DNA from: Eledone cirrhosa
Lineage: Eukaryota
Assembly: GCA_964016885.1 (NCBI GenBank)
Contig: OZ024742.1
Span: 141,856,001-141,920,000, forward strand
DNA: 64,000 bases
Reading direction: 5' to 3'
How positions within the stretch are numbered: the first letter of the stretch is position 1; each line of letters opens with the position of its first letter. A program made the translations under genes and the position numbers. Below, piece after piece: positions 2,236 through 53,773 of the stretch. A model generated the notes under the pieces. The model did not search any database, was not told the origin of the DNA, and saw only the letters and a program-made list of their open reading frames with translations.

Positions 2236-2715
2236 GTAGATAAATCTACCAAGAGTTTACGGTAGTGTCCAATCCGTATGAAGAACTCAATGTAATCCGG
2301 ATATCATGGAAAGAAGAGATGCAATGAAAAATCACTTTCGGTGAAAGATAAACGGAATACAGAGTCAAGATAAAATATTAAAAAAATAATGAATAAAACA
2401 ATGAAACAGTTCCTTATATTAAACAAAAAAAGTTCATTATTTAACGATCGTTTCTAGGATATATATGTGTTAGAATTGGCATGCATATTCAACAGATCTA
2501 TTTACAAAATTATACAAAATTATACAAACTATCAAAATTAAATATACATACCAACACATATATATGCCGTCTTCAGAAATAATGAAATATATTTATTGAT
2601 AATAACAACAATTCAAAATTACAGGTCTGTTTGGGAAGAGAGTTCAAATTGACCAATGAAAACACAAAAAGTTTATACAGTTAGGTGTGTGTATATATGT
2701 AAGTAACTTCGTTCA
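2236..2715 (-). mobile_element. Penelope-like element 3' end (pLTR) fragment in (TA)n
   Basis: Contains a hammerhead motif (2433-2586) and the CATTGAGTTCTT tail motif ~47 nt from the (TA)n junction. The upstream boundary is approximate. Confidence 0.6.
2433..2586 (-). ncRNA. Type I hammerhead ribozyme motif with very long stem II
   Basis: Minus strand: TTCATTATTT-CTGAAGA-[long hairpin GGCATATATATGTGTT...AACACATATATATCC]-GAAAC-GATC-GTT-AAATAATGAA. 10-bp stem I and palindromic stem III ACGATCGT. Confidence 0.75.
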
Positions 2716-2961
2716 CAGATATGCATAAAAATATATGTTCACATGCATACGCATGCCGAAAAGATGCATGTAAATACAAAAATTCAAGGCTAATGTCTCT
2801 GTATGTTTATAATCTACAGATAAAATACGTATACGCATATAAACACATAAATATAAAAATAAATATATACACACATTCATATACTCACACATATACGTAC
2901 ATATATATATATATATATATATATATATATATATATATATATATATATATATATATATATA

Positions 2962-3440
2962 TAGTTTTGCGAGGTTTTTTATATGAAATCGTGTGTCGAA
3001 ACAAATATTGTTATACTTGGGGAGGGTCATATTTGTGTAATAATATTGCCAGAATTAATAACAGAACACACTCACTGTTTGGTTGGTTTTCGCTTCTGTG
3101 TCTTTAATATCGGTTAATTTAATTTATTCGGTCCTCAATGTTACCATTGACTGACCAACGGTCAAAAATACAGACTAAATAAAGATGGCGTAGGCATACA
3201 ATGCAACGGGAGGAAACATAATAGCACCACTGACGATGTTGCAGATGTGCAACGAAAGAACTTTGTTAGACTATATATATGTGTTTGTGTCTATATTGTA
3301 TCTGTATTTTTGACCGTTAGTTAGTCAATGGTAACATTGAGGACCGAATAAATTAAATTAACCGATATAAAAGACACAGAAGCGAAAACCAACCAACAAT
3401 ATTATTACACAAATATGACCCTCCCCAAGCATAATAATAT
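2962..3440. mobile_element. Palindromic PLE-derived insertion (arms ~3005-3174 / 3301-3440) with hammerhead motif in the loop
   Basis: The inverted repeat is directly readable. The loop has CTGACGA-T-GTTGCA-GATG-TGCAAC-GAAAGAACTT (3230-3263). (TA)n lies on both sides. A homologous end occurs at 62015-62251. Confidence 0.75.
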
Positions 3441-4244
3441 ATATATATATATATGATATACGATATTTGGAAAACTTTCGTGATTAATGTTCAGATCTAT
3501 GTGACACGGTGTATTTCTGTACGTGAAACTCTAGACTAAAGAGACAAAAGACATTGTTACTCACAAAAGAAAAACTTAGGCGAAACGAACTATGAAGACA
3601 TATAAAGATGGAATAAAAATAAAACTATCAAGCAATCAATTATTGGTGTGAGAGAATATATTTATTCTAGATAAATGAATAAATATGGTTTTCCTTTAAA
3701 TATAGAAATTCAATGAGTTTTGGAATTGGAGCTATATTTTACATGAAAATGTCTCCTCTTAGTGTTTTTGTCTATGAATTCTTTTGAATATCGCTAAGTT
3801 ATTATGCAATATTCTTGACGAATGCTTTCCTCTAGCCAATCGTAATCTCGGTCTTTGAGAAGGTGACGCTATTCAATAATTAACTGTTCTATGTGGTACT
3901 GGTCAGTTCAAAAGAGGTTTATATCGCATTTATTGAATATATCGGAGTATATTTTGCCGTTTATAAAGGAATTGATATAAGCAGATAAAGCAATGCCTCA
4001 TTGGTCAACAATAATTACTGTTTAGCCGAAAGGTATTGGTTTAAACTCTGAGAGAGTAAGCAGCTGCAAAAAGCATAGCAATAGAGCAGTATAGTGGGCT
4101 AGAATAGCATATTTTCTGGCATTGTTATAATGTGTGAAAAGAAGAGCGTGTTTGTGTTTCTGCCTGTCTATGTGCAAGTAGCATTAGTTCTTGTGTTTGA
4201 ATGTATTTCAAGTGTCTACGGTAGATACATACTTGTTTGTGTTA

Positions 4245-4538
4245 TACGTGTGTGTGTGTGTGTGTGTGTATGTATGTGTGTGTGTGTGTGTGCGTGTGTG
4301 TGTGCGTGTATATGTGTGTGTGTGTATATGTATATTTATATATATACATATGTATACATGTATATATATATATGTACATAATTATACGCATACACATAAA
4401 TATATATATATATATCAAACTATCTCTCTCTCTCTCTCTCTCTCTCTCTCTCTCTCTCTCTCTCTCTCTCTCTCTCTCTCTCTCTATGTATATATATATA
4501 TATATATTTATATATATATATGTATATATATATATATA
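4245..4538. repeat. Compound (TG)n/(TA)n/(TC)n microsatellite
   Basis: Direct inspection. Confidence 0.95.
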
Positions 4539-4678
4539 GAAATGGTTACACAACAGTTAGTTCACCATACCGTGAACGGTTTGTTGAACTAACTCTTGTG
4601 TAACCACTTCTACCAACCTCGTCCCATGGACTGAGTGCTCTACCACTACGGATATTACCTTCCAGTGTTCTACCACTA
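4537..4678 (+). mobile_element. Short hairpin-plus-tail element in (TA)n (probable PLE terminus)
   Basis: Near-perfect hairpin 4537-4612 followed by a ~65-nt tail with ACTGAGTGCT, flanked by (TA)n. Confidence 0.55.
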
Positions 4679-50778: not shown

Positions 50779-50963
50779 AGTTTCTACTTTTGGCACAAGG
50801 CCAGCGATTACCTCAGTGCACCACTGGTACTTTATTTTATCGACCTCGTAAGGATGAAAGGCAAAGTTAACCTCGGCGGATTGAACTCAGAACGCAAAGG
50901 GCCATAACTATGCTTGCAAAACATGGTGTCTGACGCTCTACCGATACTGCCAAACCACTGCCC
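50779..50963 (-). mobile_element. tRNA-derived SINE (a degenerate copy also at ~49858-50048)
   Basis: SINE consensus. AAATATAGATAAATAAT / AAACATAGATAAATAAT on either side looks like a target-site duplication. Confidence 0.85.
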
Positions 50964-52970
50964 TTAAACATAGATAAATAATGAAGATTACTATATTTCT
51001 TTGAAACAGCGTGCTTGTGAAAGCATATATACAAAAGAAAGAAATCAATTCTCAGACTGGATTAAATAATTTGCTTCCACTACTAGTACTAACTGCCGGT
51101 CCAACTCCTGGCAGAAGCATCATCGTGTTTTCAGATGAATGGTGACGGCTTTTAAATTCAGAGTGCATAGAGCTGGAACAGATCTCAAATATGCTTCCGA
51201 CGTCTTAGTAATTCCGCCAATCCCCACCACTACTTTATGTATCAACCCCAAAAGGATTAAATATAAATTTGATCTCGGATTGGGTAATCAGAAAGCCAGA
51301 TAAAATACTACTCTGCCTATTTACTAACTTATTCTCTGATCCCTATGATACTCTGTGACTTTGTGTTCCCTTGAAAAATATTGATAGTGTTTCACCTCTA
51401 CCTTCCAGACATTGGATGGTGATATTTCTAAGCAAATGTTTCTTACAAATTTTATGACAAGATCTGCATTGAATTTGATATATTGGTATATTTTGTCGCT
51501 CATATCATTTCATTGCGTAGTTTTTCTTGTCTTTTATTCTCTTGAAAATAAGTTGAGTGAAGCAGCTTTATTTTGAATACCTAATATGAAAAAGCAGCAT
51601 CGTGTTCATACAGTTGTTTTATCGCAATACCCGACAAATTGAGATCAAAGGTACTGAATAACTACATTTGAAGCAAATAATCCTTCTTAAAAAACATCGG
51701 AAATATTTGAACTTTGAAATGTGTGCGTCCCAACGCAAATCTTCATAATAATAGTCGAGAAGATCGTAATAGTCGAGAAAATCGGGTAAGGTATCCCTGG
51801 AAACGGATACATCTATCCATCAGATATGTACACAATTAATTTTACTCACTTTTCATCATAAAGTGTCTGTGTAACTGATATTTCAGTTTAAAATTGCCAT
51901 ATTCGTAGCAAGAAAATGATTACGGAACTTCGGCAATTCAGATGTAATACGAACTCAGCCTTCACTAACTCGTGTAGCTATTTTATTTTGTTCACGTGGC
52001 AGTTTTCATGACATAAAACCTTTAACAGACAGCCATCTACATAACCTGCTTACGTATTTTGTACTCACAAAAGTTTTCAAACGAAGTACAATAATTTCAC
52101 TGAAATTCTAACAAAAGAGTGAAATCCATAAAACAATTGAATATCTGACGTTTGGAGTGAGATTTTTTTCTTTTATGACGCAATATTAGCTATGTATAAA
52201 GTTTATTTTGGAGATTAGAATATATTCTGACACAAATCTGCGCACTATGGCTTTCTTAATTCACTTAACTTGTATTAGCAGTTCTTCTGGAATATGCTCC
52301 AAATATACATTTTGAACGATATATATCCATGTGTGTGTTTATAAGTGTTTTTTCTCTTATCATATATATATATGTGTTCATGTATATATATATATATATA
52401 TATATATATATATATATATATATATATTATATATATATTATATATATATATATATATATATATATATATATATATATATATTATATATATATTATATATA
52501 TATATATATATTATATATATATTATATATATATATATATATATTATATATATATTATATATATATATATTATATATATATATATACAAAATATATATATA
52601 TAATTATTTATGTGTACTTGTAAAATATTTATGAAATTGTATTTATATATGTAGGTGTGTAATATCCTTTTTATATCAGTGAGTGACCAACTAAAGTAAT
52701 TCTGCAATATCCTTGCTGTAAACTCCACCTAGTGCAATCATTCAATCTTGTTTTGCTTTTATTGCCATCACTGTTATCAGATTATTAGACGCAGCAGACA
52801 CTTTCCAAGAATAAGTAGATACTTTGTAGTCACCGGTAGCAATTCATGTCTTGCAGAGGTTATATAAAAAGAACCATAAAAATGAAAATATCCTAACAGT
52901 ATTTATTCTAACAATCTATATAATAAGAGCTAAAGTTCGTCTGTTGTAATGAATATATATATATATATAT

Positions 52971-53516
52971 CCGTAAGTACTGGGTTCAATTGGGGGTAAC
53001 TACAGTAAATGAAGTACTCAATACATTAGTACAGTATATATACAAAATTTAATATATAAATGGGTACGGTGTGTTTGGCTCTACGGAAATTTAAATTACT
53101 GATCATTTTAAAGAGATCCTCCTCAAATAGTTCAAGTAGGCTGTTGTTAGTGTGTGGTGCTTTATTGATACCAAACTTCTCATCATTGGTAGATGTTACA
53201 TCAAAGTGTTCGAAACCATGCTGACCAAACTCGACATCGACATTTCCATGAATGATATCCCCATTTCACCAAGGAAACAGTACTTTAAAACTCTAATCAG
53301 ACGTACAGACGAATTCCTCAAGCGGTTTAAATGAAGAGCCTTCTTCTTCGACCACCCTAATGTAGCATCTACCAATGATAAGAAATTTGGTTTCAAGACT
53401 AATAAGGCACGACTCACCAACAACCGACTTACCTATTTGAGGAGAACCTCTTCAAATTGATCAGAAATTTAAATTTCCGTAGAGCCAACACACCAAAGCC
53501 ATTTCTATATTTTATT
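52971..53516. mobile_element. Palindromic PLE insertion carrying the N-terminal coding region of a Naiad-type ORF
   Basis: Diverged arms ~53045-53201 / 53359-53512. The plus strand translates MNDIPISPRKQYFKTLIRRTDEFLKRFK*RAFFF...FGFKT...FEENLFKLIRNLNFR. A tail with TATTGAGTAC lies at 53013-53024 (-). Confidence 0.7.
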
Positions 53517-53579
53517 TTGTGTGTGTGTGTAGTGTGTATATATATATATATATATATATATATATATATATATATATAT

Positions 53580-53773
53580 ATAGGAACAAGTAAGACCCCG
53601 ACGGCTGAGCTCAAGCCGTTTCGACGGCTAATTCTGAGACAGAATTAGCCGTCGAAACGGCTTGAGCTCAGCCGTCGGGGTCTTACTAGTTCCTATTACC
53701 CACTCTACTACCCTAAGTATTGAGTACTTTGGTGCGTTATGGCCCACCTGGTTCCTTACCACATTTCCTTCGT
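53580..53773 (+). mobile_element. Non-autonomous palindromic element, copy 2
   Basis: Same palindrome and tail as 6746-6939, flanked by (TA)n. Confidence 0.85.

Follow-up and report, generated by a model that had tools for sequence, protein, structure and literature searches.

Features of the window

The window analysed here, a stretch of 64,000 nucleotides (nt) from Eledone cirrhosa (GenBank assembly GCA_964016885.1, contig OZ024742.1, positions 141,856,001 to 141,920,000 of the forward strand), carries several families of Penelope-like elements whose copies end against (TA)n runs and contain, shortly before that junction, a conserved motif built on GAGY. Penelope-like elements are the sister group of telomerase. 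Judged by strand pairing across families, the motif forms the 3' half of a short stem with a bulge, a hairpin of the form RCTC(Y)...(R)YY-GAGY-RCT, and the hairpin is present twice. The first-pass annotation of the window had described a linear motif; the conserved signal stands, while its linear form gives way to one strand of a paired structure. All 8 strings listed there (11 sites) were located in the window, 0-3 nt from the coordinates given, and the distance of 40-50 nt to the (TA)n junction was roughly right, with the G of GAG lying 42-53 nt from (TA)n at eight of 9 sites computed. At site 4630 the distance is 44 nt to the junction at 4677, whose TA run is interrupted, and the site at 13885 lies farther out, as had been claimed, at 76 nt from (TA)n.

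In what follows, the tail is the stretch that is missing from the inverted arm of an insertion, hairpin 1 is the copy inside the tail, hairpin 2 is the copy beyond the junction, and ends B and A are those lying before hairpin 1 and hairpin 2, respectively. The families (F1 to F8) are represented in the window by the following features.

6867..6893, + strand: hairpin 1 of F1 (ACTC ... TT bulge ... GAGT-ACT); tail 6859-6938, inverted arm starting after (TA)n 6696-6747
53702..53728, + strand: hairpin 1 of a second F1 copy; tail 53694-53773
4617..4639, + strand: hairpin 1 of F4, with a 1-nt bulge and 5' strand CCTC (ACTC in other copies); tail 4611-4676
46788..46811, + strand: hairpin 1 of F5 (GCTC/GAGC); tail end 46857
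46690..46736, + strand: match to the hammerhead core CTGANGA ... GAAA upstream of F5 hairpin 1, by pattern match alone
14239..14260, - strand: hairpin 1 of F2, this copy having GAAT in place of GAGT; tail 14198-14267
14304..14326, - strand: match to the hammerhead core, upstream of F2 hairpin 1 and with a mirror copy in the inverted arm
13708..13762, + strand: 5'-truncated F2 tail, with just the 3' strand of hairpin 1 left
53013..53035, - strand: hairpin 1 in a copy related to F2; its 5' strand is ACTG and one of its pairs is broken
41863..41911, - strand: hairpin 1 of F6 (GCTC/GAGC, long insert), at the 3' end of a Hydra-type element with open reading frame (ORF) remnants at 42945-43669
4867..4908, + strand: 5'-truncated F6 tail with the 3' strand of hairpin 1 alone, joined to an inverted arm starting at the upstream (B) end
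13888..13916, - strand: hairpin 1 of F7, a 609-bp ORF-less element found in tandem arrays elsewhere in the genome
2282..2365, - strand: hairpin 1 of F3 (long insert); tail ends at 2236
10466..13359, + strand: F8, a 5'-truncated Hydra-type element encoding a reverse transcriptase (RT) and a GIY-YIG domain; ORF remnant 10466-11869; the copy stops at the B end, has no tail and falls 7 nt short of hairpin 1

Pfam assigned no family to the truncated window ORF. A remnant of the N-terminal part of the F2 ORF, with a stop, lies at 53230-53450 (+), in the orientation opposite to that of the 53013 tail.

Enrichment of the motif before (TA)n runs

Positional enrichment was assessed in a genome sample of 140 evenly spaced 10-kb stretches from the 3-Gb genome. 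In the first 80 stretches (800 kb, 579 (TA)n junctions), starts of GAGYNCY at 50-69 nt before (TA)n numbered 51 in sense and 9 in antisense orientation, with 1-9 per 10-nt bin elsewhere. In a non-redundant set of 385 junction clusters, TNGAGYNCY was found at 40-79 nt in 15 clusters, at 100-139 nt in none, and in 4 in antisense. The motif was nearly absent from the ends of other abundant repeats (1/20, 0/14, 0/8 and 0/5). Tails were also defined blind to the motif, as the stretch from the mirror of the left junction to the right junction, which gave 48 tails in 23 clusters. The motif was seen by eye in 13 of these clusters and so not in every tailed element, the remainder being mostly short tails lacking it. 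With this definition the motif was indeed restricted to the tail missing from the inverted arm. Of the two limits of the tail, the 5' boundary and the (TA)n junction, the former anchored it better.

Full-length homology between the tails was not seen, most pairwise scores of seven tails falling within the shuffle range; 14239 and 53013 form one group, and a few other pairs were marginal. The carriers had been taken for otherwise unrelated elements, a description that has to be given up: all belong to one clade of Penelope-like elements, Hydra, as families that have diverged, which is set out below.

A bulged hairpin with covarying strands

In the 13 motif-bearing tail clusters, inspected by eye, RCTC(Y) mostly comes in the first 10 nt or so of the tail and is later closed by a 2-nt bulge and GAGY-RCT, the insert between the two stem strands varying from 3 to about 110 nt. 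As MAFFT left the short hairpins out of register, base pairs were counted by anchored patterns. In the 42 clusters returned by a pattern for the first pair and the bulge pair that did not force pairing, the first pair was A-T in 21, G-C in 15, G-T in 4 and A-C in 2 (Fisher p 4e-6), and the pair above the bulge was Watson-Crick in 27, against 13.4 in shuffles, whose counts are not probabilities because kin share letters. Relatives were taken from metagenome contigs, where an alignment of 40 proteins led to 78 loci; 13 were dropped because their match started at the edge of the contig or well within the protein, 65 were tabulated, and 51 of these had a leader of at least 150 nt. In hairpin 1 of these relatives the pair above the bulge was Watson-Crick in 30 of 32 cases (16.6 when shuffled), and T-A served as first pair in 4 metagenome hairpins. 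Both sides of the stem are altered in hairpin 2 of F2, which reads GCAC/GTGC. By these pair counts, the stem pairs covary between families.

Other explanations of the motif were discarded. A palindromic duplex site, GAGYRCTC, was rejected on the ground that the base following GAGY shows no covariation with Y, and a splice site, RNA polymerase III boxes and coding constraint were judged by eye against the free spacing and against F7, which has no ORF of more than 50 amino acids (aa). Nothing reached the gathering score of a known Rfam family, the sub-threshold matches being mostly microRNA models on repeats.

A second hairpin and the layout of the elements

The ORF remnant at 10466-11869 led to eight loci with an open frame of 745 codons. 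The 3' motif stands right before the ATG in all eight, and a second motif lies 89-90 nt upstream in 6/8. In these F8 loci the tail contains the upstream copy, whereas the start of the downstream copy is 8-9 nt beyond the point where genomic copies meet (TA)n. The downstream copy was out of sight in the first-pass annotation because, lying past the junction, it is left out when the 3' end is copied. Twin hairpins were likewise present in F3 (L179, with an 813-aa ORF) and F6 (L047). A search pattern consisting of the tail end plus any non-TA continuation, with the hairpin itself absent from the pattern, recovered hairpin 2 in F1 (L184), F5 (L209-L211, L215), F7 and F2 (L228, L232). A second hairpin past the junction and before the ATG was thus seen in read-through copies of 6 of the 7 window motif families, and the twin layout overall in F1, F2, F3, F5, F6, F7 and F8 and at loci L116 and L040. 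F7 is a 609-bp monomer in long tandem arrays that has kept both hairpins. One retrozyme-like array of about 60 monomer copies (G000:C1:81709489-81748440; L217-L227) has a variant hammerhead core match only.

Read from the hammerhead core match, where there is one, towards the ATG, these sequences show end B followed by hairpin 1, and then end A followed by hairpin 2.

Insertion ends lie at a fixed distance from the hairpins

Ends were mapped with nine read-through references against the 140 stretches and the window, F5 being left out. Of 177 (TA)n-abutting ends, 169 lay 0-12 nt before a hairpin, mostly at 6-9 nt, compared with 19.7 expected if ends were uniform; 83 were before hairpin 1, 86 before hairpin 2 and 8 elsewhere. 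Two to four nt were shared with the (TA)n run beyond the junction at 127 of the 169 ends. Among two-armed inserts with both ends classified, 74 of 77 had one A and one B end, in inverted orientation. A non-circular check was made in the metagenome contigs, using 41 loci picked for visible hairpins; it is independent because the ATG served there to locate the hairpins. Of 19 informative 3' copies, 14 stopped -1 to +4 nt from a hairpin. As aligned here, each end stands 5-9 nt before its hairpin, and a TAT/ATA stretch lies 6-8 nt ahead of each hairpin.

About ten head-to-tail pieces of the F1 inverted arm, 53-77 nt long, each starting from the B end and with (TA)n between them, occupy positions 14984-15853 of the window; they could reflect repeated priming at B or tandem expansion.

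Assignment to the Hydra clade and relatives

The features given for the Hydra clade are an N-terminal RWK/RWR, DKT, CxCX5C, CxxC and CxH (PMC8557442). Two full ORFs, of 737 (F8) and 813 aa (F3), encode in a single frame an RT with YRDD followed by a C-terminal GIY-YIG domain with IVYxC...Y(V/I)G(S/A)T. Both carry RWR at residue 37, with RWR or RWK also found in F1, F2, F5, F6 and L116, as well as DKT in place of DKG (at 118 and 115), CxCX5C (596 and 673), CxxC (694 and 771) and CxH (721 and 799). No cysteine pair was seen by eye within the GIY-YIG core, in keeping with the lack of CCHH in the Hydra clade, and insertion is into (TA)n, as in that clade. By their motifs, the carriers are classed as Hydra-clade Penelope-like elements; F4 and F7, which have no linked ORF, are assigned from hairpin, target and end pattern alone.

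Hammerhead core matches were found in F2, F5, F8 and 25 metagenome leaders, with a variant or none in F1, F3, F6 and F7; no hammerhead was among the 150 Rfam matches listed. Hammerhead-like cores departing from CTGANGA were noted at 41960-41982 (-) of the window (CAGAAGA, in F6), and no clean core was seen in the F1 leader (L047, L064).

Among the 51 metagenome leaders, two strict hairpins were present in 20 and one in 17. A strict hairpin was therefore found in 37/51, as against 1/51 in antisense, 5/202 in ORF windows and 34/5100 in token shuffles. The two hairpins are 43-85 nt apart, the first lying 35-79 nt after the hammerhead core, and their 3' strand is almost always GAGCACT. A TAT/ATA start falls at -8 to -6 in 22-27 of 71 hairpins (4.3 expected). 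Of the published consensus sequences, Hydra-1_Ajap opens with both hairpins before its ATG and Hydra-2_Amil ends in hairpin 1 and a tail (PMC8557442).

Families with short tails (32-51 nt) flanked by (TA)n and lacking the motif were also seen (L082:2747, L034:4009, L169:7252, L064:1490, L065:1850, L081:9152; window 14722-14760 and about 2963-3008). ACCC(G/A) or a word like it recurs in several of them, 7-10 nt beyond the start of the tail in some, and is perhaps the hairpin of another clade; no read-through copy of these families was linked to an ORF. At L105:887-1951, a frame with RT and GIY-YIG that looks like another Penelope type ends at (TA)n without the motif.

Other features

The window also holds a 1.1-kb direct repeat of 95% identity (21858-22943 and 24187-25283) and ORF remnants that look like those of retrotransposons lacking long terminal repeats (non-LTR) (22837-25107, 26024-27775, 30255-31799, 35253-36470 and 930-2303). 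A polyubiquitin-like frame at L153:3279-4946 and a helicase-like frame at L038:6458-7933 were likewise labelled by look.

A proposed model of two positioned starts and its alternatives

We consider it probable that the two hairpins are bound by the RT and position two starts of reverse transcription, the tail being the stretch between them. From the observed layout, offsets and pairing of ends we infer binding, strand, dimer and priming as follows. The protein would bind both hairpins, possibly as a dimer such as that predicted for the Poseidon element PAc (PMC11167929), and its GIY-YIG domains would nick both (TA)n strands. Each 3'-OH would pair, over 2-4 nt, with the UA-rich RNA immediately ahead of a hairpin, and copying by each RT would proceed toward the RNA 5' end. 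Because the two complementary DNAs (cDNAs) would start on opposite DNA strands, inverted arms would result; hairpin 2 would be left uncopied at the 3' end and hairpin 1 copied on arm A only, the extra stretch forming the tail. F7, which is ORF-less and has both hairpins, was counted in favour of such RT docking. In vitro, PAc cut and extended both strands from two internal starts that bracket the tail, and its RNA was needed to +172 though the start is at +111-118 (PMC11167929). In the Hydra set, too, the tail is flanked by two ends, both of them keeping a fixed offset from an element, and by analogy the layout supplies a candidate for the bound RNA, with one hairpin 3' of each start. Of the three roles suggested in the first-pass annotation for a shared cis-signal, recognition of the template by the RT thus fits best; an internal promoter is unlikely, and formation of RNA ends is a live rival.

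A number of observations weigh against this model. The count of 177 ends is partly circular, the ends having helped to find the hairpins, and it is dominated by F1 (70) and F6 (39), F5 being left out. Three of the 77 two-armed inserts break the rule of one A and one B end (2 A+A, 1 B+B), and 5/19 metagenome ends are not at a hairpin. No strict hairpin was found in 14/51 metagenome leaders and two in just 20, some leaders being truncated by eye, and the first lines of the Hydra-1_Obim consensus (PMC8557442) lack matching GAGC strands. Hairpin 2 of F4 was not found, with no recurrent read-through among the matches listed, and hairpin 1 in L115 was assigned from position only. Among the 42 clusters are some noise and some hairpins seen again in antisense, and when the pattern was relaxed the table became noisy and first-pair covariation weak (17 against 12.1; 282/5000 shuffles). 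The stems are predicted to be of low stability (-1.8 to -8.2 kcal/mol; z -0.4 to -3.8). With more flanking sequence included, the 5' strand attains a pairing probability of 0.6 in just 10/18 cases; on these predictions the hairpin would therefore need stabilisation by protein. The strand is not fixed by the counts of G-U versus A-C.

The alternative that survives best, though we hold it to be unlikely, is that the hairpins direct RNA cleavage or 3'-end formation 5-9 nt upstream, so that there are two RNA species, each serving from its 3' end as a template for ordinary target-primed reverse transcription. Identical genomic ends would be predicted, and RNA-seq read ends do occur at the PAc start sites (PMC11167929). 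The same work, however, describes internal starts and a main product unchanged when the template 3' end was varied, and the 2-4 nt match between (TA)n and RNA, together with the TAT/ATA peak, suggests that the template runs past the start.

Slightly less credible again is action of the hairpins in single-stranded cDNA or antisense RNA, where the GIY-YIG nuclease would recognise them and trim the intermediate a few bases away. The genomic ends would be the same, and the undecided wobble counts are compatible with cDNA or antisense; the tail has been ascribed 'most likely' to endonuclease (EN)-mediated resolution (PMC8557442), a tail requirement for EN recognition in D. virilis is cited in PMC11167929, and an antisense template was proposed in PMC3846280. 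Against this, the cDNA must first pass hairpin 2 and then be cut flush against (TA)n at both ends, the hammerhead cores share the strand on which the motif is read here, and PAc worked on sense RNA (PMC11167929).

It is improbable that the motif serves the 5' leader as a promoter element or as a signal for translation and that its coincidence with the ends has some other cause. Hairpin 2 lies 19-53 nt before the ATG in the metagenome relatives, where GAGCACT is nearly invariant, and an internal promoter has been described for Penelope; yet the stem halves covary while 3-110 nt apart, unlike a duplex site, the adjacent RCTC shows no covariation, hence no palindromic site, ORF-less F7 retains both copies, and the fixed offset to both ends is left unexplained. 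Chance or residual similarity within one family, which a short motif in carriers of shared ancestry might suggest, has largely been refuted already and is barely credible, given the excess of strict hairpins in leaders over all three controls, flanks that do not align and proteins that are 33-44% identical.

Beyond the positioning of two starts by RT-bound hairpins, we suggest tentatively, as a conjecture that may well fail, that the doubled hairpin is the origin of Penelope-type retrotransposition itself. One hairpin would serve each subunit of an RT-nuclease dimer, and each hairpin would present, at a constant distance, a UA stretch for priming as in telomerase, which would allow simultaneous priming of the two target strands; any RNA bearing such a pair of hairpins would then give a two-armed insert in (TA)n, and the rule may span Penelope-like clades with other hairpin sequences.

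How Penelope-like elements choose a template and come by inverted arms and a tail is an unsettled matter for which just one in vitro system exists. A hairpin that is doubled, covaries, spans the clade and keeps a constant offset from both ends singles out the very bases for mutation, and its offsets give a rule for annotating true Penelope ends. The twin layout would account for the long-puzzling Penelope 'tail', with hairpin spacing predicting tail length, and would explain the movement of ORF-less passengers such as F7.

Comparison with known systems

Small RNA stem-loops that are bound by an RT and fix template and start are known from the 3' ends of L2/UnaL2 long and short interspersed elements (LINEs and SINEs), from hepadnavirus epsilon and from the template-boundary element of telomerase. 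Those elements are single, and the LINE loop lies within the copied 3' end; the Hydra hairpin, in contrast, is doubled and stands 3' of each proposed start, with the outer copy uncopied. A conserved doubled hairpin was not found in searches of openly accessible papers, although the PAc supplement and subscription papers may bear on its novelty. The tail and the two starts are already published, and the doubled hairpin itself would be a variant form of RT cis-element.

The published Hydra clade, with its C-terminal EN, matches the present families in protein motifs and (TA)n target, with hammerhead core matches in some of the families; the words 'hairpin' and 'stem-loop' are absent from the main text of that paper, which ascribes the tail to EN resolution (PMC8557442). 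Non-LTR retrozymes have been described as non-autonomous derivatives of Penelope-like elements (bioRxiv 10.64898/2026.07.22.740005), and F7 is similar as an ORF-less 609-bp tandem monomer with Penelope-like ends; it differs in having just a variant hammerhead core match, and in the portion of that account considered here no shared cis-signal is mentioned.

PAc of Anolis carolinensis is alike in having a tail between two starts, in the cutting and extension of both strands of an AT-rich target, in the requirement for RNA 3' of the starts and in its predicted dimer (PMC11167929). It differs in being a single element of another clade, with starts inside the ORF and inside an 'AC-rich stem loop', and no duplicated or family-spanning motif is described in the portion of that study considered here. 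Its tail measures 30-40 nt (PMC11167929), compared with a hairpin spacing of 43-160 nt in the Hydra set.

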